From: Botryllus schlosseri | Taxonomy: Eukaryota | Length of the DNA stretch: 64,000 bases | Direction: 5' to 3' | Assembly (NCBI GenBank): GCA_051294905.1 | Contig: CM119372.1 | Location: 40,364,001-40,428,000 of the forward strand | Shown here: in pieces, positions 6,547-63,990 of the stretch | Numbering within the stretch: the first letter of the stretch is position 1 | How the letters are laid out: each line of letters starts with the position of its first letter | Notes under the pieces: generated by a model | What the model was told of the DNA's origin: nothing | What the model saw: only the letters and a program-made list of their open reading frames with translations | The model's database searches: none | Translations under genes and position numbers: made by a program

Positions 6547-7654
6547 GCGTAGAACAGTGCTTCCAGGTTACCTAGTCAGTCAAATTAACCTACTATTTAA
6601 GTTAGCTCCACTTCTGCTCTAGGAATATGTCTCCAAAATTAAGCAATATCCATATCGTCCCTTGAAAGCGAAATGTCATTCTTTATTATTATTGTTATTA
6701 ATAATAATTGATGAGACATTGTGGCGCTTGTCACCTTATTGGTCTGGTGCGCTGCAGCTAAAATTTCGTATCGAAAGTCACAAACCATTTACCTATAAAT
6801 GACTTCAATTAGCACATTGCTGGCCATCACGAACTCAACGAGAGGAGATAGAAGTCATACTAAACTGAACAGCTATACTTTTGCGCAGTATTCAGACAGG
6901 TTTTATATCTTTTTTCACTTGCACAAGTAATTGCGTTTGTATACTACTTCTACGTTAACGTTCTTATGATGCTCAAATATTAATTTTTGGCTCTACTTGA
7001 TATTAGTAAGTGAGAAGTACTTTGGGGATTCCCTTCAAAACTGAGTTGCTACGAAGTTAATAGATTACATAAATAAGCAATAAGCATGAAGCAATATAAA
7101 TTTCTCCGATTCGATGGTTTTGCCTTCTCGGGGGCTGAGATGAGTCTAGCATTAAGTCGATTTTTTCATCAACACCATCAGTTATTATATCCATTGAACT
7201 GGCAAGAGACCAGAATTCTAATACAACTGACTGAACGTTTTACTATTGTAGCCCCCTCCCCCAATCACCCCTTCATTATTTCCTCTCCCGTCTCTCTAAA
7301 TCGCCTAGGGGGCAATATCGTCCACCTCAGGAACCACAGGTCTAGAGCCTCGTCGATTCAAGTAGTCAAATCTTAGTCGAGTATCAAATATGATGACACG
7401 GCAACGAAAAATGTGCTTTCGACGCCTTATTACCATCGTGAGAACCTTGAGACATCGGTTGATCGTATCACGACGTAAATTTTTCATGTGTAGTATAGAC
7501 TGGAAGCTACCGAGAAACGAACGTAGAGTGAAAAGGTAGCACGGGATACTTTCGCAATTAAGTTCATTTCAGGTGCAAGTTATTAACTTACAGTGCCGCT
7601 ATGACCAAGTACAGTTTTAGCGAAAAGAGTGTTCACTCACACCCAAATGATGAT

Positions 7655-7782
7655 ACACGAAAGCAGAACCTAACTCAGAATGATATCGTGGTTTTAAATC
7701 TTACGTTCATGCATAATTTGGATTAAAATGTTGTGTTTGACTGCGGTATAAGTTCGAGGTATGTTCTGATTTCGTGCACCAC
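7655..7782. repeat. short palindromic MITE-like repeat
   Basis: CACGAAAGCAGAACC...TTTCGTG; similar copies at about 13540-13710 (reverse) and 26382-26530. Confidence 0.55.
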
Positions 7783-7924
7783 TGGAGGTTATTCACAGCC
7801 GTATATCACGGGTGGTGCACGGATGCCCATACATACTCTTTTCGCTAAGGGTGTATTTCTATCTATACACTTGCAGCTCATATATAAAATGTAAATATTT
7901 ATTTAAAAGTCACTCTGTAGAAAA

Positions 7925-8056
7925 ATGACTTCGATGGAGTTCGACCTTCGGCGAGCGTTGCTTCTGAAAGACGAACAGATCCGTGAGCTGCAATGTTCGC
8001 TCATAGAGAAAGAAGCGCTAATCGAGGAGTTGCGAGCGAGTTTGGATAAATATCAG
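7925..8056 (+). CDS. PRKG1: PRKG1 alpha-type exon 1 (leucine zipper)
   Basis: [44 protein letters not shown], then GTCAGT donor (phase 0); heptad pattern like the PKG-I-alpha zipper. Confidence 0.9.
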
Positions 8057-11000
8057 GTCAGTTGCGGCTCTTCAACACATTGTTACCGGAGTTTGTTGCG
8101 CTCCAGATGGATTCGCGATACTTAAGCATGACGATAACTGGCAGATGCTTCTCATCTATAATTCGAAGAGAGGAAATGAGAGAGAACTTTTTTTTTCATT
8201 CCGACGAGATGCATTGCAAAAAAAACTATACTGAGGATTCAGGAAATCACGCGGACTCAGTATTACTGATCGTATAGAAATGATCTTTTATCTTACTACA
8301 AGCATGCGAAACTGGAAGCAAAACTGGAAGCAATGTCTTGGTCAAGTAGGGAATCGGTGCTACGAAAACAATAGGTAATCAAGGGATACTATATAAATCT
8401 ATCATGCGACAATGCACGGGAATGTTGCGGTAGTGTGTTCCACATGATAGGTCCGAGTAGTCAAGAAATCTCTTAGTTGGGATCAGGGTTGCATTTAAAA
8501 CAAACATCTATTTAAAACATTTTTTAACTGTTTTTATGTGTATGTTTTTCGTCATAGGGTAAATATGGCTCCTTCGACGAATTTACTTCAGACCACTGAC
8601 ATAAACAGACCAAAAATATCTCTAACCAGGACTACATCGATATGCGGCAATTTTACGGCCGGCAGTTCTCATCACCAGAACACCCATTCCGTACCAATGA
8701 TCGATATCTAACTGCTATAACTGTCGAACAGACGATGGTTTCGAGGGTTCCAGCAACCCCACATCGTATACGTTGACTCTGCTGGGTGCAAATCGTCCGT
8801 AAAATCATAGTACATGGTTTTCAGAAGTATTCACACAATTATGGCATAATTACACAACGTTTGGAAAAAAACATTTTTTTAAAGGCGTTCGTTTAAAACG
8901 CTGTAAGCATGTTTTAGAAAAAATATTCTAAAACACCGTTTGTTTCAAATGCTTACCTAGTTGGGATACTATTTGGTTGGATAATTTGATCATTTTGATC
9001 GATGCTGATGACACAGTATATAATGAGTATAGGCGTAAGGACAGGTTAACGTTGCCATCCACTCCATGCCTCGATGACGCAGATATCGATCGAGGACGAG
9101 CAGGTGCAACAACGACCTTTCTCGAGAAGCTTTTAATTAAATGCGCCATTCATATTTACTCGACCACGCGCGAAGACGGGTCATTGGCCTCGAGTCTCGG
9201 GGGAAGGAGAAATGACTCACAGCTGATTCGAATCCAACTCGAATATGCATCAACCGAATCAGACAATTTTCAAAAAGTGCCACAATACCTCCTCTAAGGA
9301 CTATGGCTAGACAGTGGACACGATGATTCGATTAGTCGAATCTGGATGGCCAATTTATTCTGGTAATTCGAGTCGCGTAGTGAGAGGCGATTTTTCAACT
9401 ACTGAAATGAAAAGCCCATTTCCGCCTACACTTATATTATCGATGTGTCTAAACCTCGATTGATCGTATCACAGCATATGAAACATCAAGTAGAAAGCTA
9501 TGCACGAAGTCGTGATCAACCCACAGCATTCTCACAAAGCGTAATGAAATAGGTCTTGTCGAAAAATAATGAGTTTGAATTGATTTGGAATATCGGCGTG
9601 TGGTACTTTTCACATTATCTGTATTCCTGACGTCGTAATGTGCAATACATGAATTCTCGACACGATTCAAAGTCTATTACTGACCACTGTCAGTAGTGAA
9701 GACTCTGAGCTAGCAATAGCTGCAAGAACATCGCAAAACATAACACCGGTATCACGATTCACGCCAAACGATGACACGTGTTAATCCACCACTACAGCTA
9801 GGACTGAAACTACTGTCCATCTAACCAGATTTGTACAAATCTGACGTCATAACTCATAACGCTCCTGATTCCTTCCATGCAGTCCATCTTAGCCCACGCG
9901 GCTCACCAGCGTCAGCCACCGGCTGAAAAAAAGACGAAGCATCGCAAGGAGAGGGCGCAAGGCATCAGCGCCGAGCCGCAAGTCGCCGTTCTACGGGATT
10001 CCAAAACCTATCCAAAGCCAAACAAGTAAGTATCTAGTTCTAGACTGGATGTTGTTTATTCTTGTTTGGATATAATTGGAGAAGAGACATGCTACTTTTC
10101 CATACACGCGTCCATGTGCGGAGAAATTAGGGATTACATTTTAGTTCCACTTTGCTAGTGGTATTCTTAACATGAGGTACCCCCTGGGGACTAAATTTAA
10201 AGGTCCATAGAATGCCAATGTCTACACCACAACTATAATATGTATCTATATCTATATACATATATTTATAATAATAGTCTTTATTTGCGCCTAGCACATG
10301 TCACCATCGGCACTTATGAGCTTGCTTTAGTCATCAGGTAGCTTTGCCGGCAAGTATACCGTTCTATAGCCAACCTATGCTGTCCAGTCCACGAAACGTT
10401 CAATAGCGGCCAGCGCAACCGCTCAAAACGCTTAAATGACCGCGCCAACAAAAAGGTTAGGAAACACTTCTTCGCATGGAGCCGTGAACATTCATGTCTT
10501 GGCGTGTTCCATGTTACCGTGATCCATCGAGCTGCTATTTTCACGCAAACATCATCATTATCGATTTGCTGGCGAATGTTGACCACAGAATAATCCGCGA
10601 CGCAGCCTAAACAAGCCGTTGATCGGTAATTGGCTAGAGATGAGTCATCGGAAATAGCTCTATTAGCATGTATTTACATCGGCTAATGGAAACCGATTGT
10701 GTGGCAGAGCGAACGAATGTTTTCCATTGGAATACAGCGAGCGATGCATGGATGGAGAAGGTTTAGATATGAAGGAATTCAACTCGCACAGAAACTGCAT
10801 TGGTCTGCGCTTATAGTCAAATTGACAATTACTGTTCGATTGTCGATTGCAGTGTTCCGATTTGAATGGCGGGAACAGACTCGTGCAAACTACCAATCTA
10901 GTTATTATTAATGCTATTATATTTAAAAGGAAGTTGAGTGACGCATATTATACTTTTTTCGTCAGGACTGTACAGGAGTCAGCAAACATTATATTCAAAG

Positions 11001-14000
11001 CAACTAAAACCTCTAGAACTGTTTATTTTTGTATTTTTTTTTATAATTTTCCACATCAGACGTGATATATAGTAGTAAGTTTGTATAACCTGCACATTGG
11101 CAAAGTATCAATCTAGTTAGTTCAAGGTCATCAAATAACTACTGGTTATTTGAGTAGTTTTGGTCCTATAGTTGCGGATTTTGAAACGCGACTACTTCAA
11201 CTTCTAATTTAAACAACCATAAAATACGTGTCGTTGTTTGGCGTAAATCGTATTACCGGTGTTGTTTTGTATCATTGTTGGCTCGGAGTCATCACTGCCA
11301 ACGGCGGCGCAGTCAGGGGTGGATTTTGGTGGTCGAACTCCCGACCCGATTCTGATCGAATAAAGATTGATGGTTTGCTTCAGACCTGATTCTATAGTCA
11401 TTAGTCAGTTGTGTTTTAGTTGGTTGCGGATTTTTAAGGATCGTTAATTAGAGTGCTATTTCCCTCTGCGAATTTCGAATATCCGATAGTTTCTACAAGT
11501 TTGAGTGCCACGATACAAATTCGAGACATCTATTTACTGCTGGAAAAGTGAGTATTGTGGGCAACGATTTCTAAACCCGGCAAGCGAAGGGATTGTTTCA
11601 ATTAACGCGGCAGTGTGAGGTGACAGAGTACACCAACATAAAATAAGATAGCTGGCTTGTGCTACCGAAATTGAACATTAAGCATCCATTGCCTTGAACA
11701 TTAGGCATCCATTGCAATAATGCATATGATTTTCACTGTATTGCGTAGGTTAGACCCTTTCTTCATTTTAAAATGTGGGAATCTACATCGATTCGCTTTC
11801 CAACAATCAATGGAAATGATTCCCAGTTTTTGTGAACAAAAATATTTTTGATGTGACTTACAAATCTACCATTAGTCTGCTTTTCTTTATGTATCTCTTC
11901 TGTCGTTTACCTGTATCGTTGCTATTCCGGTACCAAGTTCTTGTTGTTACCATTGTTACAATACGAATATCTGTAATTTGGATTGATTAGCCATACATTG
12001 GCATATTGGTTTCACTTTTGCATCTGTTTGATTCCTTAGTTGTGTCGATAATTCTCGATAAGAGGCACCGGGAAAGTATTTTCGAGTTATCGTATATGTA
12101 TCCTTGCAATTGACAATGTAATAAAGCCAGTTAGACGTCTTTGTATCGCAAATTTTGGATTTGGGCGACAAATTTAGATAGTTTTGAGAAAATCAAATAG
12201 TGTTGATTCGCTAGCAATTTTGATCACTTTTACCACTCAGACGCGATTTCGAATTGTGACGCAGGCAGAAGGGTCGAGTTAAAATCTGTTATCTGACATC
12301 AAAAGAATCTTTCGAAAAGCCACGAGATGTGAAATGTATCGACTCGTGAAGAATGTGTAGACTTGAACTGCTAAAGTATGTTTTGAAATCGGTCCCTTAT
12401 CGAGGCCTCGAGGCGAAATTTTGAGTTAATGTCGCGTAACGGAATATGTTTTGGGTTACGTTTGACGTTTAGAAGCGGGATTGTCGGTTGTTTGCAGTCT
12501 CTGTTTAAACAGTTTCTCGCGCAATATCAGAAAGCAATTAATTGATTTTACGTCTTCCTAAGTGATCAACATTAGATATCGGCAATAACAGGACACAAAA
12601 GCAATCGATTTCTCAGCATTAATTACGATAAAATTACGAATACGTATTTATGGCAGTCAGACGATGGTGGGTCTTTGTTGCCGCTGTCATGGGTCGTTTA
12701 TGAATCGGTTGTCAGGATATAACCACTCGTAATCGCATTGCGTTACATTATTTGCGCGAGCCTCAGGAAAGAGCGGTAGCTAAGTTTTTAACGAGGTTCA
12801 GAATGTCTGGTTGAAGAGATATATTCTGGACTTCTTGGACAGAGCAGGTTTGTGTTTTGATTTGAAAACTTCAATGCAGTCGCAGAATGTATGCTTTCCA
12901 CGTTAAGATTGAGGCCACTCAAATAGACGTGACATTTTCTAAAATGTCCAAAATACTTGAGAAGGGTATATATAAAAGTAGCAATGAAATGAAATATTCG
13001 AAACGATGCGATATCATGCGAACGACACCAATCGCTCAAATGTATTGCAAACTACTAAACTATTTAATTGCACGGCTACTGCTGATGCGTAAAATACTAA
13101 CGGTGTCGATAAAGCATGCACTCCAGACATGATCGCTTAAAAGTAACCCCATGTCTCGTTTCATAACTCAAAAGCGTCGCGAGTATTTATTCAGCAGTCG
13201 CACACTGGAGGCATGTCGTTCGTGTACGTTCATTGAATGATTTTGAGACGAAGATCATTGTTAAGAGAATGTTACTGCTAGAAAACATCGACTTCAGATC
13301 AGTGTGTTTCAGTGACATGTATCGCATACCCCAGTGTGCACCATAATATTGCAAACGCGTACAGCGTTAATGGTTCTGGCTGCACCAGACACATTATCAC
13401 AATATGTAGGCAGGTTTATGCCTTATACCAGGTTAACAGGATGCAATATATACGGTACACTCTTAGCGAAAAGAGTGTAAATTTCCAGTCGTGTAGCACA
13501 CCTGATATACGGGAGTGTATATACAGTATACACCCATGATACATGAAACCAGAACCTACCTCAGACTTATACCGCGGTGTAACATTTTATTACAAATTAT
13601 ATATGCACGTAGAAACGTAGGAAGGTATGCAGTGCATACTATGCACGTGGCAAGGTAGGATTTATGTCTGCGATATAATTCTGAGTTAGGTTCTGTTTTT
13701 GTGTACCACCATTTTCCGTCCTTGGCCGTGACCACACACTCTTTTCGGTAAGAGTGTACAACATCTATCATTTATTGGAAACTAAAACCCTAGCATAGAT
13801 TAAAAAAAAAATCAACTGTGAGTCGGTAATGGACATCTCGTGGTGCTACTGCCGAAATGTGGAGCCTATTTTCAAGGGGGAAGTTTTCTGTGTTGTGGAT
13901 CGTGAAGCCGCTTACAAATGTAGAGTGTAACTTGAGCATTTTGGCGACTTCGCCAGTGAACATGTTTAAGTTCAATACGATTTGCTTCAATGGCATAGTT

Positions 14001-17000
14001 TAAACAGTTGAATACCTATATTGAATTTGGGGTATTGCTTCTAAACATTCATGAATATAGAAATCTCATTAAAAAAAAATTTCCGTGTCTGTTTGCAGGC
14101 CATCCCCCGACATTTGGGCTGTTCATAAATAACTTTTTTTCTGGATTCCAGCAATTCAGTGATTGTACTCGTTGGAATTAAGTCAAATTTGTTTTGCATC
14201 ATCCTTGAAGACAGCTCAACAATTTCATGGAGTTGACAGAAAGATTTGATTTTTTTAAAATTTTCCCTAATAAATTAAATTTTTTAATTGGATATGCAGA
14301 GCCATATACTTGTTAGAAACGAACCAATTTGGTGTGCAGCGTTTTTAGGGTAAACTGACAATTTATTCACTGAATAGCTGGAATCGAGAAAAAAAAATTT
14401 GAACAGCCCTACCTGACATACCTTTCAGTGCGAGTATTTCCTGCTATTGCAGAAAATAATTCCAATAAAAAAATTGTATCCATGATATCGACACGCTCAT
14501 GAGAGCAGCACTCGAAACAAGGCTATGCCTCGCTTCACAGAACAGGCTCAGCAAATTCAACAGCATCGCACGCAGTAAATGACAGGTGTAGTTTCGCATT
14601 TGTTTCAATATAGGCCGCGTATTTCCTATACCTTGCGGCCTATCTCATCATTATTCTGATTAGAATTTATGCAGACTCGGTGCATCGCATGGACTGGGAT
14701 GTATAAGTTTTGAGTAAACATTAAATGACTCCTAGCGTACAGAACGTCAATTGTAGAGGTTAAAAATCAACGCACCATATCAAAAGGATAGTTGATAAGC
14801 AGTGCTTCAGGTCACTGAGGATATTCTGATTGATGGTAGTGCTATGACTGGATTCGCAATAAAATTTGGTGAGTCATCCGCCGCCAAACAAGTCGAAATG
14901 GACCCGCGCGCTCTTGATCGACCACCATTTCATTCCAAGGATGATCAAGATATTAAGCAGCAAGATATTAACCCCTTAGTCACGACTAAAATGTCGATAT
15001 CTTGCCATTTTATGAAGCTTCCAATGGTTTGCAATATCTACTACGTCACAAGCTCGATTTATCTGAACAATTGCTTCGTAAAGGACAGATAACATCCATT
15101 ATCCAAGTATAGTCTCGCAACAGTATCAATAAACTAAACATTGACACATTTCGCGACTGCAAGCGGGGTTTTAGCAGAAATCTCAAGTCATATCCTGAAA
15201 CGTTTGATGGGTTGACCTGACGTTATGGCCCGTAACAGAAAGAGAAATGTTGAGTCACTAATTTTGCTTGTTTAGATCGCGATGCAGAGAGACTTGCTCG
15301 TAAAATTATAAAGCAATATAAATTATATTTGTGGAACTAATCTCGCGCAATGAAGCTGACTTATTTGGGATTCATAATCAATTTTTACTCGTTTGCCTAT
15401 TCACTGGGATATTTCGAATTGCTGGACTGGACTCAAGAGAGCAGTGATTAAATCAGTTCATCAAATTAGAAGGGGGTCGGGGAACGATTTGAAATCGGAA
15501 ATTGGATCGTGACCAGAAAAAAGGTCCTGGACAACTAATTACCACACCTTGCGTGATATCAGTTTCAAACCGATTGCGAAGGTATCAGCGACCGACTTGT
15601 ACACAGTGCCTACCTTGTTTTAGTTGATGCTCAACTATAACCAACTGGTTTACGAATAGTTCTAGACTCTAGTTCCGAATTTTCATATTCCAGTCGTTTG
15701 CACAAGTCTGGCCTGTCAGGAATTTTCTTCTCATCAGTCAGTTCACTGATATTTCGTCATAGACCCTATTACCCGTGATGATGTCCGTACGGGACTTGCA
15801 GCAGTGCGTCCAAGACACGACAAATCAGCTCCACCAACGAGACGTGCTCATTTCCGATTTGGAGTTGGAGCTCGAAGAGAAGGACGATCTGATCAAACAG
15901 CTTTCGAGCGAGCTGGACAAATATCGTAGCATTTTGCAGCCAGCCATCAACCTCAGGAATCAGTTCAATGGGGGATCGAAAACGAAGACGGATGACCGCA
16001 TCACCATCAGCGTTTTTCCCAACAAAGAGAGTTCCGATAATACGGCCAAACCAATCATTCTCCTGGATTCCTCTAGTCCGAGCCTGAACGAATCACAGGA
16101 AACGTACGGTAGTCCGTTAGTGTCGCCAACTCGAATGGACTACGTCGAAACTATGCCGCTCGAAAGCGTCCGATCCAGAAGCGTCGCGTCTCTTCACAGA
16201 TGTGGACGTGAAGTCATAAGCGATCAGTTTGAAAAGACACAATCCAGCGTGTCGTTCTCTACAGGCACCAGTCCCGTTTACATCCAAAAATCTCAGGATT
16301 GCTCATTCTGCGGGCGGCCATCTTGCAGTCAATCTGATTCGCCTCACAAATCCACCAATCATTTCGCCGCTAATTTTTCATTGGGAGGATCCTTCGACGA
16401 GTCTGGTTGCGGTGGCAAAAGCATTTTGCCGAAATGTCTGTGGAAAAAACGCGGGGTTCGCAGGAAGAAGAAAACGTCGTCGAGTCTCATCACTGCATTC
16501 ATGCCTTTTGCCACCGAGGAGACGCGACATTGCTTGGAGCTCAACCGAAATAAGATGAAAAAGCTTGCGGGCGAGAACCAGACACGCAGAGCCAAGAAGT
16601 CTTCGTGGAAATCGAGATTTAAACAAAACAAGGCGAAAGAAGAAAATAATAACCACGCTGACCCATGTCATTACGAATGTCGTTGCTGCCCGCAAGTAGA
16701 TGAATCAAAGTCGGAAAGCAGCGAGAAGGCCATCAAAAAGCAACGAGTGAACGTCGCGATTCAAACCTCGCCCACTATGCACAACAGGAAGCATTCCCGC
16801 AGTAAAAGCGTCGACCATGGCATCAAAAGCGACAAAAACATATTTTCTTTCGACAACATTGACGTAATCGGCGAATATTTCAAAACCATGACTCCCGATA
16901 AGCGTCGGATGATGAGTTACATTTGCGGTACGCTCCCGACCGCGTTTCCGTCAAATGGCGCGACTTCTGTCGACTCGAAACCCGCGCAAAACGGCAGAGG

Positions 17001-20000
17001 CGGTCATGCAAAACGAGCCAAGCGACAAGCCATCTCCAGCGAGCCCGTCAATCAAAACTCGTTCATTATTCAACACACTCCGAAATCGTTGAGGTAACAT
17101 CGAGACCAAAGATAGTAATTGCGGTTACAACAAGGCAATGATGAGATTTTGATTAATTTTTCACGACTGACTTTTCTTTACAGGACGAAAGCTTTGATCC
17201 GCGAGGCGATTTTGGACAACGACTTTATGAAGCATTTGGAGAAATGCCAGATCGAGGAAATCGTCAAAAGCATGCATCCGGTCGAGTACAACCATTCCTG
17301 CATGATTATCAAGGAAGGAAATGTCGGGTCGTCCGTCTACGTGCTTGAAGGTTCGTTATTTGCTCTAGCGAGGCCGCATAGAGTCGGACCACTAATCTGG
17401 AATGACGGATGTACATTTGTACAAGCAGTCACTCAATGTGTTGTCAGATGCCATTTCTAGTCTGTGAAGAAAGCTGAGCATAATGGTCCAAATAATGAGT
17501 CGAGGCGAGTAGTGACAGATTTAATTCATGAAGATTATGTTTCCGATATTATTTTCCACTAATGAATCCTCAATAACTCGATTGGTCTTATCGCAGCATA
17601 TGTAATATGTAGCACAAAACTACGCACTATAGGGATTGTGTGAACCTCATGACGTCATATTGCTAATTCAAATCCTATGTTTCAATGAAGTGATAGCATA
17701 TTACACGATACCCAGCGACGACTCGAGCCACATAATTCCGTCAATGCTGACGTACATATTGACGTGTTAAACGTCGCTAAATGTATCAACTGGGACAATC
17801 AAATGATATAATAATCCCATAAAATCAATATCTTCCGTCGCTTTGTCAGTAATTTCGACGAGGACTTGCAAGGGAATATATAACCTTGTGCCTCAGCGGT
17901 ATCGGCCAGACCGGACAATGTATTCGGCGTCTGAGTATTGCTACGTTGATATTGAGCAGTGTGTCAAACGAGTTTCTATACTTGCTACCGATATTACCCC
18001 ATTGATAAGTTATACAACTGTAGCCAACACCCCAATCGAACGGATTTGGTTTCTATGACACAGTAAATGAAGTCAAGATGGACCCGTACGCCTGCTAGAT
18101 TTTTTACAGCAGACACGATATCAATTCTCATTGATTGTTCGAATAAGGTGCAGGTTCGTTTAGTGGTGATTTTCATGCTGCCAGCGCCATACATAGAGTG
18201 GCCCGCCATTGAAATGCAATAAATTTCAACCAAAGATGTTAAGAAGAAGTGACAAATATAATATATGAAAAGGTTCATTGTGGAGAACCTACCAAGGGTC
18301 GTATGTGAACGTGAACCTCTAAATTCTTGAGGTTCACACACAGAACGCGAACGTGAACCTCACGTTCACACCATCCTTACTACGCACGTCGGTGGAAATC
18401 ATATATCTGGGAAGTCGTGATCTACTCAAAGTATCGCCACAAAGTGCAATGAAATAAGCATGGTCAAAATGCAAAATTATCTTTTTATGTGGCTGAGCTG
18501 TCATTATATTGTTTGTGGCCGCATAAAAGGTGCATGTACTTGAACTTTCCACATATTACATACTTTTATGACATCATGACGAGTGATACTCGAATACCTA
18601 ACCCGAAGTCTGACTCTCGATTCAGAATCGAATCACTCAGATATTCGACTTGCTCAGCCCTATATCTATGACTGCTCGATGGCTCCCGCCGAATGACAAA
18701 CACCAATCGATGAATCAATATGAGACAGTCGTCCAATCTGTTGACAGATGGTAAAGTGGAAGTGACGAAGGCGGGCGAACATCTCTGCAATATGGGCGCT
18801 GGAAAAGTGTTCGGCGAGCTAGCTATCTTGTACAACTGCACCAGGACCGCTTCCGTCAAAGGTGAGTCGATGATCGCAATTTCACTGCAACGAAAACTGC
18901 TGGTCACCAAAAGTTTTGTCAGCAATAGTGGGTGCGTATCCTTATGATAAGTGAACTAAATACATACATATAGCTACACTCAGAGCCGGTCAAAGTAGTT
19001 ATCGTTGGTACACAACGTCATAAATATTCAGGCCTAACTAGACGTTCTGTTTTATAACACATATCAAAACTATTTGAACTAGACAATGAAAGGTCTGAAG
19101 CGTACTCAAGTAATAAAGTTGCATCACAAAGTGGATATGATCGTACAAACTTTTGACAGTTCATCGGAGGTTTCTACTTCCGAAATGGCAGGCTGCATCG
19201 TCATGATTTATCCAAAGTGAGCAATGAGAGTACAAACAGTTGCAATTTTGGAAAATATGTTCAATTATCGCGATGCAGTCGCTATTTGACGCGGTTGTTA
19301 TGGAAATGTTAATCGTCAATGGCCCAAATGGAAGTTCTTTAACACAGTGGTTCTCAACCGGGGGTCTGCGAAGCATTTTCAGGGGTCTGCGAAGCCCCAA
19401 AATAGTTGATAACCAAATTTTTATTTTTTTAAATCGGAAAATCTCAAGTCATTTTCGCTTCATTATAAGTAAAACTCCAGAGCTCACCAGGGTTATAATG
19501 ACTCGAGTCAGACTTGAGTCACGATTTTTTGGTGACTCGACTTAACTCGAGTTAAATTCTAAAAATTGAAAAATGACTCGACTCGAATCGAGTCAATTTG
19601 TGTATTGACTCGACTTGTACTATAGTCATTACGCATGACTCGGGCCAAGTCATATGACACGACATTGGGTCTACCAAGACAGGCATTTCATCGTAATTTC
19701 GTAGAATAGTAAAGTTATCGCACTATTATATTTTCGTCTATCAGTACTGGTAATGTAATGCTAGCAGAAACTGTTAAAAAGCAGAAAATTAGTACATTAT
19801 TAATGCGAAGCATTCGATATCACCGAGAAGAGTTGTAAAAAGTGGGTTTCAATCGACATTAACTAGGAACTGAACAGTCAACACAATGACTTGGACTCGG
19901 ACTCGGCATTCTACTTCGGAATTTGGACTCGGACTTGACTTGGCGGTGAATTGAAAATAACTCGACTCGACTCGAGTCAAAACTATAAATGTGGGACTGA

Positions 20001-41000: not shown

Positions 41001-43756
41001 AAATTTACGTCCGAACGAGTCTTCCGAGAGTCTGGTTGGGAAAATAACCTTTTTCATTAGTAAGCACAACAGTATTTACGGTAAATTTTTCAAATTACCC
41101 GTTAATCATCCGATAATGTAAATTATGTCATTTGTAAAAATTGACCTCCTTTCCGGATCTCAAAATATGGTAACGCTACAAAATTCTACAAAGTTTTGCA
41201 TCTAAAACGGGTGTGTAGAAGTGGAAGTAGTCGAAAAAGATTAATGTTTCAGTAAGAATTGTGCATTCTGACCACTTCTGCTAAGTAATACCAAGAATGA
41301 ATCCCGTAACCAGAAAATCAATATCTTCAGGTTGATTTCGGATTCGCCAAGAAAATAGGGTTCAGCAGAAAAACCTGGACATTTTGCGGAACCCCGGAAT
41401 ATGTCGCACCGGAGATCATACTCAACAAAGGTCATGACCTTTCTGCAGATTACTGGTCGCTGGGAATTCTCATGTTCGAACTACTGACCGGCAGGTGAGT
41501 TCACGGTGTGTGCGTTTGTGACGTCTCATTAGTGATCGTTTCGGTGCGTGAAATATATTTTGTTGGTTTCGCGTCTGGTTTTCGAGTCATCTGAAGCTGA
41601 CGTATTACGTCGTAGTCGACGACGGTTCTCAAGTAGGAGTGGAAGCTGTGCGGAACATTTCGACTCTATCACAAGCGGTTTCCAAACATTCCACGCCAAA
41701 TCAAGTAGTAGTCGAAAATGAAAGACTTGAAAAGTATTGAAGTAAGCAGTAGTTAGTAGAGAAGTTCCCAAACTGTTTATGATCGGGGACCTAAATTTCG
41801 ATTTGAAAATTTTGCGCCACCCCACCTCTCAATTTGGCGTGATGTTTGCTAAATAAATGGCCAGCATATTCGCAAAAACTTTCTCATGGCCCCATGTGTG
41901 AAGCTTGCGTTCTCAGTAATAGCAATTATGAACTCGTAAACCTCCGTCCTTAGATTAAATCAAAATATCAAACAAGACTATAACAACGTAAGTAGGTCTC
42001 TCCAATAGAAGTATAGTGATGTATTGCTACGTGATATAATGCGTCACGCGAAATACGGATAACGAACGATCTATAAATTATTCTGCCGCGCCCAGCGTGT
42101 GCATTACGGTTATATGTTAACACATTGCACTGACGGTCACTTGTAGTTTTCCTGTAGTGATTTTTATTGTGCTCCCGACATTTTATTCTTCATAGTGATG
42201 GCCAGTGGTGGCGTATAAAAATGACTCTTCGAGTGACCAGTGACCTGACACCGTGCTTACCGGTTTCGCCTCTCTCAGAGGTCCTGTTTCTTTTATTTTG
42301 AAAAATGAACTAGGATATAGGAAAATGAGCCGCCGATAGCATCCGCTTCATTAGTCTTCTCGTAATAGGCATTGCTACTTAAATTTAGTGTTCGCGCCCT
42401 CAGAGAATAGGCAGACGATCCTATTGGGGTTACTACCCCTAGTTTGAGAACCCTTGATTTAGTCTAATAGCCAAATATCTTTAGCTGCTAACCACGGTTG
42501 GTTACTTTCAAAAGCAAAATGACCGATGGCGCTTCGATTACGTTGGCTTCTGGAAATATATTATAGGTTTATTTCGTGCCTTTCTTGCGACAATTTCGCT
42601 CGTAAAAGTGCTTGCAGGTGCAACGTAAAACCACTTTATACTTTATCAAATCCATATAGAATCACAAGTAACATTTAATAATCGAGTAAATAATACAAGT
42701 AGGCAAAATCTAGTTGGATATTACTTCACTCACACTCTGTTAATGTTCCAGCCCGCCGTTCACTGGCCACGACCCCATGAAGACATACAATCACATTTTG
42801 AAGGGAATCGACATGGTCGAATTTCCAAAGAAGATTTCACGGAATGCGCAGGGCCTCATCAAAAAGTTGTGCAGGTCCGTTCTTCTGATTGTGCAAAGAG
42901 ACATGAAGACGAATATGCTTGCTTAACAGAGACAATCCGGCCGAGAGGTTGGGGAATCAAAGAAATGGAATCAAAGATATCCAAAAGCACAAATGGTTCG
43001 ACGGATTCAATTGGGAGGGGCTTCGGAAATGCAACGTCACGCCACCCATTGTTCCTAAGGTATTGAAAATGCAATAATTACTCGATTGCATGTGGTTTGA
43101 ACGTAAAGCATAATTACTGACCGTGCTTCACAATTGAATATGTGAAAAATGATATCCTTCACTGGAGATAACAGGATACAAGTCAAATTCAAATATCAAT
43201 GATAATTCCATGGCTTCCGATTTCAAATAATCAAATTGTCAAAAAGGAATGCCGATGTATCGTTGGTGAAAAGCGACTCTTATCTGCCCGTACATTCGAA
43301 CAAGGGGATATGCATGGAAACGTAAGGAATAATATTTGCTGGCATAATCCGTGCAGTAGGATATAGGTTATAGTACGAATTTTCATTACGGCCTGTTATT
43401 GACAGATTTTGGCTTCACTTTTTCGAAGTAGTCAAGTAGATTCTTTCGCATACGATTAACATGACCTGGGCCAAATCAACATTTCAAACGTTTACTCGAG
43501 TAGCTTTGAGATCTACGTTTTATACTTCCAATTAAATTTTTCTCATGCCGTGGCATGAGATGAAATGCACGGCGTCACTCTTACTTCTTATTGAGTAGCA
43601 ATGTTAACCACTGACTACCATCGATGGTTATTTAACCGTCTTGTGAAATGGTTTCAGCTCAAAGGCCCGACGGACACATCCTACTTCGACAAGTTTCCGC
43701 CAGAAGACGAGTCTCTGCCTGAAGTGGACGAGACCGGCTGGGACAAAGAATTCTAA
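7925..43756 (+). CDS. PRKG1: cGMP-dependent protein kinase I, alpha-type isoform: join(7925..8056,9883..10025, 16 common exons 17184..43756), about 674 aa
   Basis: Manual splicing gives an uninterrupted 2025-nt ORF: leucine zipper, RAQGISAEP pseudosubstrate, two cyclic-nucleotide-binding domains, AGC kinase domain and GWDKEF C-terminus. All introns are GT-AG with matching phases. Confidence 0.93.
8484..8959. mobile_element. MITE (same family as 1801-2232)
   Basis: TIRs plus perfect TSD GTTGGGAT. Confidence 0.85.
9883..10025 (+). CDS. PRKG1: PRKG1 alpha-type exon 2 (autoinhibitory segment)
   Basis: ccatgcAG acceptor; [53 protein letters not shown] donor, phase 2. Not in the ORF track. Confidence 0.92.
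10884..11440. repeat. dispersed repeat shared with about 24735-25190
   Basis: Shared CAAACTACCAATCTAGTT start and GCTCGGA.TCATCACTGCCAA core; boundaries approximate. Confidence 0.55.
14114..14411. mobile_element. palindromic MITE (family of 3808-4192)
   Basis: TTGGGCTGTTCA...TGAACAGCCCTA; TSD CCCGACAT/CCTGACAT. Confidence 0.8.
15778..17093 (+). CDS. PRKG1: PRKG1 beta-type first coding exon (zipper + about 340-aa insert + KRQAISSEP)
   Basis: 440-codon open frame (ORF 15775..17097) with PKG-I-beta motifs at both ends; donor AG|GTAAC. Confidence 0.88.
15778..43756 (+). CDS. PRKG1: cGMP-dependent protein kinase I, beta-type isoform with long N-terminal insert: join(15778..17093, 16 common exons 17184..43756), about 1021 aa
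   Basis: First exon MMSVRDLQ...[36 protein letters not shown]...[11 protein letters not shown] matches the PKG-I-beta N-terminus. The phase-2 donor at 17094 fits the acceptor at 17183. Confidence 0.88.
17184..17350 (+). CDS. PRKG1: PRKG1 common exon 1 (start of CNB-A)
   Basis: [59 protein letters not shown] bounded. Confidence 0.95.
18748..18861 (+). CDS. PRKG1: PRKG1 common exon 2 (CNB-A phosphate-binding cassette)
   Basis: [38 protein letters not shown]. Confidence 0.96.
19345..20732. mobile_element. non-autonomous hAT (Buster-type) element carrying a nested MITE
   Basis: TIR CAGTGGTTCTCAACC...GGTTGAGAACCACTG; perfect TSD CTTTAACA. Confidence 0.92.
19488..20038. mobile_element. hAT MITE with GACTC/GACTT subterminal arrays (nested)
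   Basis: CAGGGTTATAA...TACAACCCTT; TSD GAGCTCAC/GGGCTCAC; inverted copy at 25669-26206. Confidence 0.85.
21145..21590. mobile_element. MITE (TAGGGTTACCATA family)
   Basis: TAGGCTTACCATA...TATGGTAACCCTA; AAAAGAGGAC subterminal repeats; flanks TACTAAAT/AACTAAAT; copies at 45879-46321 and 58513-58947. Confidence 0.85.
21621..21726 (+). CDS. PRKG1: PRKG1 common exon 3
   Basis: [36 protein letters not shown]. Confidence 0.95.
22097..23083. mobile_element. degenerate MITE-like element (TAGGG..CCATA termini)
   Basis: TAGGGCTGCCATA...TATGGTAACTCTA; TSD CCGTTACG/CCGTTGGG; internal similarity to about 40850-41178. Confidence 0.6.
23423..23486 (+). CDS. PRKG1: PRKG1 common exon 4
   Basis: [21 protein letters not shown]. 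Confidence 0.93.
24000..24077 (+). CDS. PRKG1: PRKG1 common exon 5 (CNB-B)
   Basis: [26 protein letters not shown]. Confidence 0.95.
24141..24235 (+). CDS. PRKG1: PRKG1 common exon 6 (CNB-B)
   Basis: [31 protein letters not shown]. Confidence 0.95.
24288..24732. mobile_element. palindromic MITE (family of 3808-4192)
   Basis: TAGGGTTGTTCAAAAT...ATTTTGGACAACCCTA; TSD CTTTACAA/TTGTACAA. Confidence 0.8.
25263..25334 (+). CDS. PRKG1: PRKG1 common exon 7 (CNB-B)
   Basis: [25 protein letters not shown]. Confidence 0.94.
25669..26206. mobile_element. hAT MITE with GAGTC arrays
   Basis: CAGGGTTGTAA...TTATAACCCTG; perfect TSD ACCATCGG. Confidence 0.9.
26542..30040 (+). mobile_element. decayed DNA transposon with about 130-bp TIRs (TAGGGTGG termini, possibly hATm-like)
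   Basis: 26542-26672 is an inverted repeat of about 29910-30040; the interior is a stop-riddled coding-like remnant; no clean TSD. Superfamily assignment is tentative. Confidence 0.7.
27887..29220. mobile_element. non-autonomous hAT element (CAGTGTTGGGAT termini) nested in 26542-30040
   Basis: Perfect TIR CAGTGTTGGGAT/ATCCCAACACTG; perfect TSD ATTTTAGA; GACTT/GACTC arrays; sister copy at 49912-50864. Confidence 0.92.
30112..31292. mobile_element. non-autonomous hAT (Buster-type) element
   Basis: TIR CAGAGGTCTCAAAC/GTTTGAGACCTCTG; perfect TSD GCTTAAAG. Confidence 0.92.
32368..32436 (+). CDS. PRKG1: PRKG1 common exon 8
   Basis: [22 protein letters not shown]. Confidence 0.92.
32492..32588 (+). 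CDS. PRKG1: PRKG1 common exon 9 (kinase Gly-rich loop)
   Basis: [32 protein letters not shown]. Confidence 0.93.
32783..32808. repeat. (GTT)n microsatellite
   Basis: About 8 tandem GTT units. Confidence 0.9.
33590..33729 (+). CDS. PRKG1: PRKG1 common exon 10 (kinase subdomains II-IV)
   Basis: [47 protein letters not shown]. Confidence 0.95.
35502..38730. mobile_element. CAATGTTCCCTCTAA-family element (interrupted copy of 59711-61223)
   Basis: Collinear with 59711-61120 once 35933-37837 is removed. Confidence 0.85.
35933..37837. mobile_element. non-autonomous hAT element with further nested MITEs (36201-37206; 36529-36838)
   Basis: TIR CAGTGATCGGGAACCT/AGGTTCCCGACCACTG; perfect TSD TCCTATCT; the empty site is visible at about 60158-60165. 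Confidence 0.92.
39649..39738 (+). CDS. PRKG1: PRKG1 common exon 11
   Basis: [30 protein letters not shown]. Confidence 0.95.
39797..39938 (+). CDS. PRKG1: PRKG1 common exon 12 (catalytic loop)
   Basis: [47 protein letters not shown]. Confidence 0.96.
41331..41494 (+). CDS. PRKG1: PRKG1 common exon 13 (DFG / activation loop / APE)
   Basis: [54 protein letters not shown]. Confidence 0.97.
42752..42874 (+). CDS. PRKG1: PRKG1 common exon 14
   Basis: [42 protein letters not shown]. Confidence 0.96.
42930..43059 (+). CDS. PRKG1: PRKG1 common exon 15
   Basis: [43 protein letters not shown]. Confidence 0.96.
43658..43756 (+). CDS. PRKG1: PRKG1 common exon 16 (AGC C-terminal tail, stop TAA)
   Basis: [32 protein letters not shown]. 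Confidence 0.95.
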   Translation, partial: LKGPTDTSYFDKFPPEDESLPEVDETGWDKEF

Positions 43757-54086: not shown

Positions 54087-56406
54087 CAGTGATGAGCACC
54101 GGAGCGGAGTCGGAGTGGATTAGGAGCGGAGTTTTGCCAATTTTGTGATACCCGGAGTGGAGTCGGAGTTTACAACAGATATTTTTCCGGAGTTTTCCGG
54201 AGTATTGTTAAGTTTTGCCCCCGATATCTTTCGATAGCTTTGACCAGAAGACACTATTGATTACAAACACAGACAGTTGACACCTTGTAAAGTTGTAATA
54301 TGACCGGTAATATGATTGCCAACTGCACAAAAATCAGCCATCTGCACTGCAATTGGGGACTGGAGAGTAACCTAGTGATCTAGCAAGGCATTTCCGTTGA
54401 GCAGGGTCTGTAGTTCACAAACTTGAAGGCACCCAAGGCACCCAATATCATTCGCAGTGCATCATTTGCTTCCTGCCTTGAGATGCAGTCTTTGAATCCA
54501 CTGCTGAATGTCACCATATTATGAGATAAGATCTCCAGAATCTTCCACGTTGCTATCATTGCGGTCTTCTATAGTCACATCACATTCCTCCTTGCGTATA
54601 GTCACATCACATTCCTCCTGGCGTATTTGTTTCGTGACTAAGTTTCATGCTACCCCAGTAATTGTGCGAAACATTTACAATCAGCAACATACAGCGGGGC
54701 TTCCCTATGGTACAGCCTTTAGCTACCCTGATTCTTCCAGCAAGTTCATGATCATAACGGAATGTATCCCATTATCCTGATGACATTCAACATAGTAATA
54801 GGTCCATTTTGTGAAAATGTATTCCTAACGTTGGTATCAGTTGAAACAAGATAATTTATCTGATACCACTTTTGTGATAACTTTTCGCAACTTTCATCGT
54901 ACTTGCAATTTGCAGTAAGAGATATCGATAATAAGTGTTGCATCAATATTACCTTTATATCTGTGAGAAATATACATACAACAAGCAAGTATCTGGATGG
55001 AAACAATAATAACTTATGCAATGTGTTACATGATTTAATGACATTGCGACGAGTTTTCGCTAGTAAGATCTGCTCACAGAGGCATACCAGCATCTAAGAT
55101 TTCAACAATACATAAATCACTAAGGTAAGCTGATCTTACCCTGTAAAAACAGAATATTCCGAAATTCTGAACAGCCACACTAAATAACTACACCCGTCTG
55201 CTTTGCTCTGCTCGCATCAACTCAACTACGCTTCCTTCAATATTGATTGACGTAGTCAGTCATCCAGAACTCTTCTGAATTTTCGTCATGTAATGTTTGG
55301 TTTGATTGAAAAATGACTTTGATGTGATAAGAAAAATCAGCACCGCAATCAAGTTTCTGCTGCTGGTCTGTCTCAGACTCCAAATTCCAGATATCATGTA
55401 TCAGCTTCAAAATTGGAAGTCACTAGTCATTTAGTCAACTCCAAGGAGCATCGATCGGTGCGTCAGTGATGCATCATGTATGTTTAGTGCAGTGCAGTTC
55501 CATCAACTGGTTCATGACGGTGCGGAACTTAATTTACTGAAACCTGTGATGTGATCGTCGATTTCAGTGGTGTTAGTGGTAGTTAGTTCGAACTGACTGG
55601 TCTTCCTTCGTCGTTTTAATATAATGGCTGAAGCACCGTCGACTTCAAGTGGGTTACTCACAAAGACGCAGAGAAAGAGTGACGTGTGGAAGGATTTCAC
55701 TCTGATGCTGCATGATAATAACGGCCAGTATACTGGGTTTGCGAGATGTCAAAATTGCAATGTTCAGCTAAAGCATCACAAGTTGACACGTGGTACGTCG
55801 CATCTTCGAAGACATATCGAAGCTTGTAAGAAGAATTGATCGCAGTTGAAATGCAAGTAAGCGAGTAATCAAAGGAGAAGGTGATCATGGGGAACACTGA
55901 TCGCCGGGTGGAGAATACCGAAGAAGTGCCGGTTTGCCGTGGTGTTGTGCAGAAAATGTTTTGCCATCCAGATTTACGGTGAAACGTAAGTTGGATGAGG
56001 AGGCTTCATCTTTGAAGCAGAAGCTGTCAGAGGAACTAAGAGTTGCTATCAAGTGTTATGAGCTGGCTGGCATCACCTCAGATATGTGGACCGATCTAAA
56101 GGGTCGCGGTTCTATTAGCTTGACTGTCCATTTTGTTGGAGAGAACTTGACTCTCAGAAGTAATGTTGCGACTGTTCGGCAACTCACGGATACTAAAAAA
56201 ACTGGTATGAATATCAGACAGGCTATCGAAAACATCGATTGGGATTCTTCGACAATGGTCTGGATATATTTCGAAGACTGGACAAGATTCTTCGGGTTAT
56301 CTCGGAGTCTGGGATTGAGATCCCCGGAGTCGGAGGGACTTTGCATCAGAGACGAAAGTTGCCGGAGGGACTCGGAGTCTCGAAAAGCAGACTCCGCTCA
56401 TCACTG
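54087..56406 (+). mobile_element. internally deleted hAT (Ac-type) transposon with BED zinc finger and partial transposase
   Basis: TIR CAGTGATGAGC/GCTCATCACTG; perfect TSD ATATCGAC; GGAGT subterminal repeats; transposase remnants at 55624-56230. Confidence 0.93.
55624..56232 (+). pseudogene. truncated hAT transposase (BED finger + first catalytic Asp region)
   Basis: KSDVWKDF..CQNC..GTSHLRRHIEAC (BED) followed by a stop; then LPSRFTV..GITSDMWTD..ISLTVHFV; the C-terminal half is absent. Confidence 0.88.
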
Positions 56407-56775
56407 ATATCGACGTGACCAGCGCGCGATTACGATCACGTCGGTGGGCAAACATCCGAATACTTTCATTAGAATTTAGGCCTATTTTCAATTGACTATC
56501 TTTCGGCAACTGCTCCGAAGCGAGGTAAAATAGTTAAAAAAATTCAAATAACTTTGAGGAAAATTATCAAGCATATACTGTAAAATAAATATTATGTCAT
56601 AAATAAATTCCATAGTGCAGAATCATGCAAGGTTCTTATGCGAATGCGAGCATTTGAAAGACCGAGCTTCTCACACAGAATTCGGACGTACGTGCAATGT
56701 TCGAACCATCCCAAATAAATGGACTTTCCATATTTTTTAATCTACTAATATTTTGTTTTGGTCTTTGCTGCATAG

Positions 56776-61596: not shown

Positions 61597-63990
61597 CTAA
61601 ATAACTTTCCTCATACCAGGACTTAGCAGACCTTCGAATTTACTGCGTTTCAGTATTGGCTCATTGCAGACTTCATGCCAAGCGTTTTGTGTACCGAAAG
61701 TGGTGTTTCGACCTTTTAGCTTTTTTATAATTTTTCGCTGGGTGATCTGCTGCACTCCGTAAGCTACGGCCTTCAGATCAGGATTTTGTGAGTGCCTACC
61801 TAAGTTTATCTGAAAAAGATTATACGGTATCAGAACTAGCCAGTTCCTAAATATTAAGAAATATATTTTTACCAGATTTCCAAAGAAAGCTTCCAAAATG
61901 TCTTGCGAGAAAGTTCGCAGGCAAACATAATCCAGTTCACGAAGCAAGCGTTCACAGAGAAAAACAAGATTTCGAGATGTAAAAATCAATACCTCCAGGG
62001 TTGCTCGAGGAAGAATGCGTTTTTGCTCTCCCAATTCATCTACTTCAGCCTTCCAAATAAGGATTTATCACTCTAATTAGTTTACATGGCAAGCATTTGA
62101 AGTCTACCTTCCATAACATCAGATCCTGGACAAATTCCTTGAGGAAGTTGATCCTGTGATCCTCCATGCTGCGTACAGGATTCCTGACTCCGCAGTTAGT
62201 CACTTCAAACCAACTGTAAGACAATATAACAATTTTGGTTTTGCTCACATAAATAAATTTGAGAAAAAAACTATTGCACCTGTTTATAAGGAGAATGAAG
62301 TCAGAGGTACCCTTTGCTCCATCCATCGTTGATAAATTTTTCCCCACTTCCCAGCTTAGAATATCCGTCGACAAGTTCACTTTCATCTACATGTCAATTG
62401 TAAGGCTTGTGATAATATTGAACAGTAGACTGAAATGGAAAATGTACGTTGGAATATGGATTCAATCGAATATGGATTAAATCGAATATGGGCTTCTGTG
62501 AGCCTGGTCCGTCTGAGCATGAGGCTGTATTTTTCATTTTCGTAGAGTTTTATAGTATGTCATTCCCATCTTTGTTCATGTATTTTGTTCCACTTGATTT
62601 CGACGAGTAAAGAGCATTCCTCATGGTCTGCAAGATAAGAAATAATAAAATAATGATGAGGTAGGAGTATATAGCTACATACAATACCTTGAGAAGAGAA
62701 GAAGAGGTGTATCGGAAAAGATAAGTATCTGTCTATCACGACAATATGGATTGGGGGCGGAGAAGGAGCAGTTTAGAGGAATTTCTTGGCTTCCAGCCAG
62801 AACTTTGAAAAATTGTCTATTTGTAGACATGCCATGCCGTCAGCAATAACGGCATGAACTTGAATGCCCTTTATCTCACATTCACGAAGTAAGTGACAAA
62901 ATTTTAAAGCCAGACCCCCCATGAGTGACAGTTGTAGGATACCACGCAATGGGGAGCGAGATTTCTCCTTTGACAGTGCGCAGGTAAAATACTGGAAAAT
63001 AATCAAATACTGTAATCCCAGTTCGCGACCTTATTGAAAACAAACCCACCAAGAATATGTGCAGCCAGCTTGCACTCAGTAGAAAAGTTTGCATCAACAA
63101 AGCCCACCAATTTTCCTTCAGACATCACCAAATTTTCTCTGACTAATAAAATAATAACGAAATTAATTTACATTAATATATATCGAAACGTACATCTTAT
63201 TACTTTTCATTTCATCGAGAGTGATGAAGGCAGGGAGGTGGTCATGCTGCATCATTACTCTCTCAATTTCTTTGAATGCCAGATTGTTAATGCCTGGTTG
63301 AGGCTTCACAAAGTTCCTGTGAATGGAAGCATTACAATTACATCACAACATTACTACGCCTCAGATGACAAAAGACATTTACCTGTATCTTTGCAATGTT
63401 TTAAAGTAATAATATGCTGATATGTAGCAGGTGAGCGACAGTATAATTCCAGAGCCCATCTGATGACATCAGGATGATATCTCCTTCCCGCGGTGTCAAG
63501 TTCTGCATTTTCAATTTGATTGGAAATGAAAACTCTTTGCCAGTCATTCACTCCTTCGCCAATCTTGTCCTGGGATGTCTAAATACAGGCATGGCAGCTT
63601 CTGAGCCATCATAAAGGTAAAAACTGACTACAGTAGCTCATCTACTGAACAAAGTACAGAGAAATCTCATAGCCAGGCTGACGTCTGTACTACCTTGCTA
63701 ACATTACTAATTAATCATTCAATCTGATTACTTCAGTCGATATATTGCATTCTTCATCCAGATGCATCGTCAACTCAGATGAGGCTTCTACCTTCTTACA
63801 AAATATGCACTGTGAAGAACTATCCTTACAATCTCCAGCCATGATGAGAAATAGTACTCAAGTCTCAACCAAACAGCTATATTTTTGAACATGCACTTCA
63901 CCAATGATCAGACAATCAGCAGATCTCCTAATATCTTGGGATGACACCTTGGTACCATCCCAAATAGGAATTGGGTGAATGTTGATATTG
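61597..63990 (-). pseudogene. decayed intron-containing P-element/THAP9-like transposase (may continue beyond the window)
   Basis: Motifs in order: GRRYHPDVIRWALELYCRSPATY; LDEMK|IRENLV..GFVD; VHAVIADG; MKVNLSTDILS; FSQDILEAFFG. GT-AG introns at 63143-63203, 62214-62279 and 61810-61872; frameshifts near 62900-63010. Confidence 0.85.

Follow-up and report, generated by a model that had tools for sequence, protein, structure and literature searches.

In a 64,000-nucleotide (nt) stretch of the Botryllus schlosseri genome (assembly GCA_051294905.1, contig CM119372.1, positions 40,364,001 to 40,428,000 of the forward strand; hereafter the window, numbered from its first letter), the gene that by its sequence is ascidian PRKG1, encoding cGMP-dependent protein kinase I (PKG I), has a beta-type first coding exon (15778-17093) in which 357 codons lie between the leucine zipper and the pseudosubstrate. 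The resulting long-linker isoform is a real, conserved and apparently undescribed variant of a known kinase, and it already exists as an automated RefSeq model in Styela clava. As to what the insert does, we are evenly divided on a proposal in which it would form a disordered tether with a targeting cassette, probably clamped by LC8 (DYNLL).

The first matter to be settled is whether the insert is present in mature transcripts. The stretch is contained in 20 of 24 public runs (12 with half its words or more; seven studies), none of which is recorded as RNA, and four were placed on positions 7000-19000: X1 and X17 as contigs, X21 and X23 as raw reads. A single contig in X1 covers 15756-17091 at a depth of 14 and a single contig in X17 covers 15313-17091 at a depth of 20.3, and each spans the whole insert and continues across the following 90-nt intron into exon 2. 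The two runs lack an RNA record, but their GT..AG joints mark spliced molecules, and because the contigs are unbroken over the exon and continue through the splice joint beyond it, the mRNA retains the insert; the earlier note's question of retention in RNA thus finds its answer in a whole exon spliced to exon 2 in both runs. The insert-bearing PKG I-beta is almost certainly a real isoform. A further contig crosses the intron after that at depths of 47.1 (X1) and 44.6 (X17), and the ratios 14:47.1 and 20.3:44.6 hint that the long form makes up a third to a half of transcripts; such ratios are a poor measure, and intronic background is present.

The exon map was made by placing Styela clava PKG proteins on the window, and it comprises two alpha-specific exons, one beta exon and 16 common exons, the last ending at 43756:

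7925-8056, + strand: first coding exon of the alpha type, with the zipper; 64% identity to Styela isoform X2 by tblastn, ATG, GT donor and contig depth.
9883-10025, + strand: second alpha-specific exon with the alpha pseudosubstrate RAQGIS; in-frame join to exon 2, giving 674 amino acids (aa).
15778-17093, + strand: beta-type first coding exon, 438 codons plus 2 nt; open reading frame, whole in spliced contigs of X1 and X17.
15781-15942, + strand: beta leucine zipper; PF16808, identity to Styela and amphioxus, confident helix.
15943-17013, + strand: 357-aa Ser/Lys-rich insert, predicted disordered; composition, AlphaFold2, homology to two other inserts.
17014-17046, + strand: beta pseudosubstrate [11 protein letters not shown]; KRQAIS motif, aligning with PDB 7LV3 via amphioxus.
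17094-17183, + strand: 90-nt GT..AG intron, phase 2, leading to the first common exon; joint present in X1 and X17 contigs.
17184-43756, + strand: 16 common exons with two cGMP-binding domains and a kinase domain, 582 aa; Styela protein mapping.

The beta exon lies in a single open frame (15763-17097) with its first ATG at 15778, and it ends at 17093, immediately before the 90-nt intron. Joining the exons at AG/GT sites gives a beta model of 1021 aa and 115.7 kDa and an alpha model of 674 aa, neither with an internal stop, so that the giant PKG-I isoform of about 1021 residues foreseen in the earlier note is borne out. The alpha splice joints are not among the 15 contig joints listed. The zipper matches PF16808 at aa 17-50 (E 3e-8; 33.6 bits, slightly below the 35-bit cut-off) and is identical to Styela at 37 of 54 positions and to the amphioxus beta form at 32 of 54. 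The common body is identical to that of Styela clava at 517 of 582 positions, where Pfam finds PF00027 twice and PF00069 in the Styela protein, and to that of amphioxus at 406 of 580. KRQAIS, at aa 415-420 of the beta form, is described as the I-beta autoinhibitory motif in PMC9417419, and the human structure PDB 7LV3 has the same pseudosubstrate at chain position 4. The gene thus shows the beta zipper, KRQAIS, in-frame downstream domains and alternative alpha and beta first exons that mark PRKG1, an alternative first-exon event dated to bilaterian age in PMC8373072; the short linker between zipper and pseudosubstrate, which is typical though not strictly defining for PKG I-beta, is lacking (364 versus 13-14 residues between landmarks).

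Three smaller observations concern the alpha and beta first exons. The alpha N-terminus is interrupted by an intron (8057-9882) immediately past its zipper, near the insert site of the beta form. A pyrimidine-rich tract at 15720-15762 ends in TAG 15 nt ahead of the beta ATG and might serve as a splice acceptor, in cis or in trans; in X1 the depth rises from 6.6 upstream to 14 downstream, and a 2-nt indel allele at 15723 is an alternative cause of the contig break. At 15899 both contig runs carry an allelic Gln/Arg difference in codon 41, within the beta zipper.

The insert is not private to Botryllus, contrary to its earlier description as lineage-specific. The closest full-length relative, Styela clava XP_039272906 (RefSeq model, isoform X1, 1208 aa), has a homologous insert of 543 aa, and the Logan protein P0006 contains a beta zipper, an insert of ~580 aa and a pseudosubstrate, terminating where the window exon terminates. 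Smith-Waterman alignment of the inserts alone gave scores of 167 and 130 for the window insert against the two others and 294 for the remaining pair, compared with shuffle maxima of 74, 88 and 90 (none of 500 shuffles reached the score in any pair), and since these alignments beat all shuffles the three inserts share one origin. Between the window and Styela some 137 columns align well, 42 of them identical. Insert lengths span 357-582 aa, and the distance from the landmark DKYR to KRQAIS is 364 residues in the window and 550 and 586 in the other two proteins, as against 13-14 in all three amphioxus beta forms (XP_078579216, XP_019635421 and XP_066303706), from which the long insert is absent. 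In human I-beta the linker from zipper to pseudosubstrate is ~18 residues; the earlier note gives under 20 for mammals. Styela isoform X2 (XP_039272907, 681 aa) is an alpha form and not a beta form without the insert. Word-based protein searches gave no matches in Ciona, Phallusia, Halocynthia or Molgula; these searches are insensitive (they returned one, two and three proteins and also missed vertebrate I-beta), so the absent genera are uninformative on the range of the insert. The pattern is best explained, on sequence comparison, by a linker that lengthened in an ascidian ancestor to become a long disordered tether; the split between Botryllus-like forms and Styela is placed at ~197 ± 28 million years ago by PMC5899321 (node 89, read as the styelid crown from the topology).

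From RSILQP to [11 protein letters not shown] the insert occupies exactly 357 codons of one open frame, as the earlier note had it, with 14.6% Ser, 9.8% Lys and 12 Cys. The other five frames over the same interval contain 6-20 stops each, and by chance alone the window would be expected to hold about 1e-6 open runs of this length. With a three-row alignment AlphaFold2 assigned predicted local distance difference test (pLDDT) values of 83-95 to the ten-residue blocks of residues 1-60, the zipper helix, and values below 50 to 344 of 438 residues; the charge-hydropathy index is negative for all three inserts. The insert is therefore predicted to be disordered, and its earlier description as Ser-rich and probably disordered stands. 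A helix at aa 247-290 in a single-sequence AlphaFold model, a possible domain, shrank to 247-268 at a pLDDT of ~50 once the alignment was supplied, and is not treated as one. The sequence is single-copy, matching itself alone in the genome both as protein and as DNA (nine other DNA matches fall in the 5′ flank), and repeats internal to the window cover 18% of the window and 0% of the insert; the earlier claim of freedom from stops and transposable-element debris is accordingly upheld, and that of a locus saturated with such elements is partly checked by the 18% figure.

Database searches named no family for the insert. Pfam gave none below E 0.1 over it, the 25-aa motif region matched no PDB sequence, and in the ESM Atlas the exon returned zipper clusters and leads under 0.9 and the Styela core no usable match. 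The one match of phmmer against 1.84 billion representatives, P0005, is a tandem-repeat sequence that matches through Cys/His composition and is spurious, so that search found no true relative. Three origins or folds were set aside. An exapted transposable element is rejected for want of related genomic copies and of any transposable-element protein family, with the proviso that an ancient origin would escape detection. A zinc-binding domain is rejected because Cys/His spacing differs among orthologues, C304 is the sole invariant Cys and the first Cys cluster is unaligned. Intron exonisation, an idea prompted by the intron that directly follows the alpha zipper, is unsupported, there being no matching donor in the beta exon.

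What is conserved within the insert is concentrated in a central cassette of ~110 aa, whose order and spacing are kept in the three proteins while the flanks differ about twofold in length:

16174-16191, + strand: S[RK]SV[AV]S at aa 133-138, a short conserved word that precedes the cassette; three-protein comparison.
16417-16512, + strand: cassette element 1, aa 214-245, a polybasic patch round Trp222 with KKTS as its PKG-type site and the hydrophobic [11 protein letters not shown] after it; aligned in all three proteins.
16588-16620, + strand: cassette element 2, the basic-aromatic [11 protein letters not shown] at aa 271-281 with the PKG-type site KKSS; 9-mer score 35.
16645-16689, + strand: NNN and a Cys-rich patch, aa 290-304, with variable Cys spacing; alignment of three inserts.
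16747-16773, + strand: cassette element 3, aa 324-332, VNVAIQTSP, a candidate LC8/DYNLL site with Ser/Thr-Pro at +2/+3; score 35, published binders.

In the window, Styela and P0006 the Trp-to-Trp spacing is 55, 57 and 56 residues and the Trp-to-Gln spacing 52, 53 and 56, and the distance from the Gln to the pseudosubstrate Lys is 86, 174 and 180. Two 9-mers common to all three inserts, KKSSWKSRF and VNVAIQTSP (in the three proteins VN[VI][AG][IV]QT[ST]P), score 35, above 300 of 300 shuffles (maximum 31). All three proteins have polybasic runs (net +10, +10 and +13 within 25 residues). On a basic-hydrophobic scale five of the six basic-Trp patches reach 1.0-1.3 and the remaining one 0.86, cassette element 1 peaking at 1.2. 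Sites of the type K/R-K/R-x-S/T lie in or beside these patches, which suggests docking released by phosphorylation. The cassette is probably a functional docking module, and a targeting or scaffold role, as envisaged earlier, fits it at the sequence level. All motifs that the earlier note quoted are present in the window; [10 protein letters not shown] and RRAKKSSWK have counterparts in the relatives, and CSFCGRPSC and KRRMMS fall off the conserved columns. Its Cys cluster CHYECRCC has Cys-rich counterparts of unconserved spacing, and VNVAIQTSP, among the two best-conserved words, was missing from its set.

The third cassette word resembles an LC8 site. LC8 binds an 8-residue Gln-anchored word in disordered regions, with preferences given in PMC6607443 for branched residues at -1 and +1, a polar residue at -4, Val or larger at -3, a non-bulky residue at -2 and Pro, Asp or Glu at +2 (general background on such sites is given in PMC12187134 and PMC5963919). 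The anchors of the three proteins are IQT, IQT and VQT, with Gln at 0 between branched or hydroxyl residues at -1 and +1; all have N at -4, V, I and V at -3, A, G and A at -2 and no internal Pro, and from -4 to +1 they agree with the preferences set out in that source. Styela NIGIQT equals the 53BP1 QT1 word over six positions, and QT1 binds LC8 with a dissociation constant of 4.5-5.2 uM in supplement 1 of PMC12057147; the window's AIQT matches the LC8 binder site of syntaphilin. In the training set of LC8Pred (79 binders and 32 non-binders, anchors counted by eye) VQT occurs in three binders and no non-binder, and the three non-binders with IQT all have Ser at -2, which none of the three PKG words does. 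A loose LC8-type pattern occurred in 71, 98 and 141 of 5000 shuffles and once in each real insert, at the same place. The candidate site is predicted to be disordered (pLDDT 34-38 over residues 311-340), dimerisation would be supplied by the zipper, and the genome encodes canonical LC8. On these grounds it is somewhat more likely than not that LC8 would bind the VNVAIQT word. There are two canonical LC8 genes, on C9 at 14.72 and 14.77 Mb, ~48 kb apart on opposite strands with one intron each after codon 27, and a divergent intronless LC8-like frame on C8.

A mechanism can be envisioned that joins these features. In mammalian I-beta, autoinhibition acts in cis and survives loss of the zipper, and cooperativity needs the zipper to tether the two regulatory domains (PMC9417419); since the one is zipper-independent and the other zipper-dependent, and the tether is long, the long form should stay autoinhibited and lose cooperativity unless re-stapled. 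The zipper would still dimerise the kinase and cis autoinhibition would be unchanged, and the tether would let the two regulatory and catalytic heads part, weakening the inter-monomer contact behind cooperative activation by cGMP. By a scaling law for such coils, the root-mean-square length is ~13 nm for a coil of 357 residues, against ~3 nm for 18 and 6 nm for 84. An LC8/DYNLL dimer might then bind VNVAIQT of both chains and re-staple them 84 residues before the pseudosubstrate. The two basic-Trp patches, perhaps aided by acylation of the Cys patch, would hold the dimer at acidic membranes or at some acidic partner until phosphorylation of their own K/R-K/R-x-S/T sites released it; that the docking is to membrane rather than nuclear or otherwise is a tentative choice, a little less than evenly poised. 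The conserved [ST]P at +2/+3 would offer a phospho-switch, phosphorylation near the anchor being described as lowering LC8 binding (PMC12017986). Taken furthest, the ascidian enzyme would be a PKG I-beta rebuilt with a switchable second dimerisation point, its cooperativity dependent on LC8, unclamped by proline-directed phosphorylation at +2 and freed by autophosphorylation of the patches; this full scheme is speculative and we consider it unlikely. If true, the steepness and place of the cGMP response would be set by LC8 together with MAPK/CDK input, a form of control not found described for any PKG in the literature searched.

A number of observations count against the tether-and-cassette proposal. 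Only three inserts could be compared. Both contigs differ from the assembly at nine sites in the insert, with no indel in the coding exon, and seven of the nine are nonsynonymous as against a nonsynonymous fraction of 0.79 under neutrality, so that the ratio of nonsynonymous to synonymous polymorphism (pN/pS) is about 1 and most insert residues appear weakly constrained; the data reject a ratio of 0.2 (P 0.035) but not one of 0.5. None of the seven amino-acid differences falls in the landmarks, which is not significant (P 0.20). The earlier note argued for selection and held a dN/dS of about 1 against it: on its face pN/pS is such a value, albeit from few sites in one species, and what survives of the argument is that selection acts on the frame and the short motifs, most residues being free to drift. 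The folded kinase part, too, exceeds 0.6 in places on the basic-hydrophobic scale (maximum 0.82), the window patches have weak helical hydrophobic moments (0.10 and 0.15), and the polybasic patches, judged by sequence, fit nuclear localisation signals equally well. For LC8, position +2 holds Ser or Thr, which occur in binders and non-binders alike, and not the preferred Pro, Asp or Glu; the IQT anchor is not decisive, being present in 4 of the 79 LC8Pred binders and in 3 of the 32 non-binders; the non-binder FMN2 has IQTSPT in common with the window site; and the shuffle counts flatter the LC8 reading because the pattern was written after the motif had been seen.

The same features could serve nuclear import or cytoskeletal targeting without LC8, the basic patches acting as nuclear localisation signals or as microtubule or actin binders and QT[ST]P being retained either for phosphorylation by a proline-directed kinase (CDK/MAPK) or for binding to some other domain. 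Polybasic runs in all three proteins suit this, as does the conserved [ST]P, followed in two of the three by V-R in a CDK-type context. However, conservation reaches five residues upstream of the Gln in the alternating beta-strand pattern typical of LC8 ligands, which a phosphosite alone would not require, and we regard this explanation as unlikely though deserving of serious consideration. It is less likely still that the insert is mainly a passive spacer, whose length would uncouple the heads to give a non-cooperative, differently tuned PKG in which the motifs are secondary. The near-neutral pN/pS (0.2 rejected, 0.5 not) and the variation in length from 357 to 582 aa are what such a spacer would look like, and zipper-deleted I-beta is described as non-cooperative yet autoinhibited (PMC9417419); against it stand the two 9-mers that exceed 300 of 300 shuffles and the within-cassette spacing, fixed to within four residues where the flanks are not. 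A precursor or internal start, in which cleavage of the tether or use of an internal Met yields a zipper-less, monomeric and still autoinhibited kinase, is decidedly improbable. Drosophila FOR gives truncated forms in vivo that begin near the autoinhibitory site, and vertebrate I-beta is cleaved to a fragment, both as described in PMC10299703, and the insert has many basic sites and several Met; yet conservation of the zipper is high (37 of 54 positions shared with Styela) and no conserved internal Met lies among the invariant columns. An exitron or retained intron, with the insert normally removed to leave a conventional short beta form or the long transcript being unprocessed, is very improbable as the main form: contigs do lose rare variants, 73 joints exist beyond the 15 listed, raw-read depth over the insert (mostly below 1 in X23, 0-2 in X21) is too sparse for isoform use or strand, and intronic contigs at depth 2-12 point to pre-mRNA or DNA in these runs, but the unbroken contigs cross the next intron and hence derive from spliced RNA, none of the 15 listed joints lies within the beta exon, a scan gave no strong donor-like or acceptor-like site inside it, and the open frame is kept in three proteins.

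Set beside known systems, the tethered isoform combines familiar parts in an unfamiliar arrangement. Styela clava X1 and X2, as automated RefSeq models, show the same gene, the same alpha/beta pair, the same insert place and the motif cassette, with an insert of 543 aa instead of 357. Mammalian PKG I-beta and the amphioxus beta forms share with the window the beta zipper, KRQAIS, two cGMP-binding domains, the kinase and alternative N-termini on a shared body, but the mammalian PKG I N-terminal domain is short (104 aa as given in PMC10299703), amphioxus has 13-14 residues between the landmarks, and the three amphioxus forms, unlike the window, have no motif cassette. Drosophila FOR P1-P4, a PKG-I orthologue, has long N-termini of 215-560 aa that are disordered and differ between isoforms; the added part of P1 precedes the P3 start (M346) and the zipper, P2 and P4 are without zipper and pseudosubstrate, and no FOR isoform, as described in PMC10299703, has the two split by 350-580 residues. 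The LC8 clients 53BP1 QT1, syntaphilin, NEK9 and nNOS each carry, like the window candidate, a single Gln-anchored word of eight residues, placed in a disordered part of a protein that forms oligomers, and no PKG is among the 79 listed LC8 binders. The literature searched, whose coverage leaves out most subscription journals, yielded no account of a long-linker PKG in ascidians and none that names PKG as an LC8 client.

The significance of the isoform is limited in that fly PKG is already known to have long disordered N-termini, the gene itself is not new, and the form is in RefSeq for Styela. Nitric oxide (NO)/cGMP signalling has been studied in ascidian metamorphosis. PRKG1 belongs to the genes that are high early on in the brain cycle of Botryllus (PMC9303981), and for these two reasons the long isoform may matter for work on metamorphosis and on the brain cycle. 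In the PKG I-beta model of PMC9417419 the zipper holds two heads near enough for cooperative activation, and a natural chordate isoform with a tether of 350-580 residues is a direct test of that model of cooperativity. If LC8 binds the word, PKG would enter the list of LC8 clients, and cGMP output could plausibly be tied to proline-directed kinases.

Elsewhere in the window, intronic high-copy repeats at 17426-18628, 8203-9004, 9406-9806 and 13817-14618 draw very deep multi-mapping coverage, with a summed contig depth of up to ~14,700. Short open frames at 55901-56407 (+ strand) and 61597-62064 (- strand), whose Pfam matches are not significant, resemble what we take to be decayed DNA-transposase fragments, hAT-like and P/THAP9-like. 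Outside it, the genome has three further, more divergent PKG-like genes, on C5 at ~11.88 and ~11.96 Mb and on C16 at ~13.91 Mb, mostly with 33-73% identity per exon to the Styela PKG-I body; the two on C5 lie ~75 kb apart in the same orientation.

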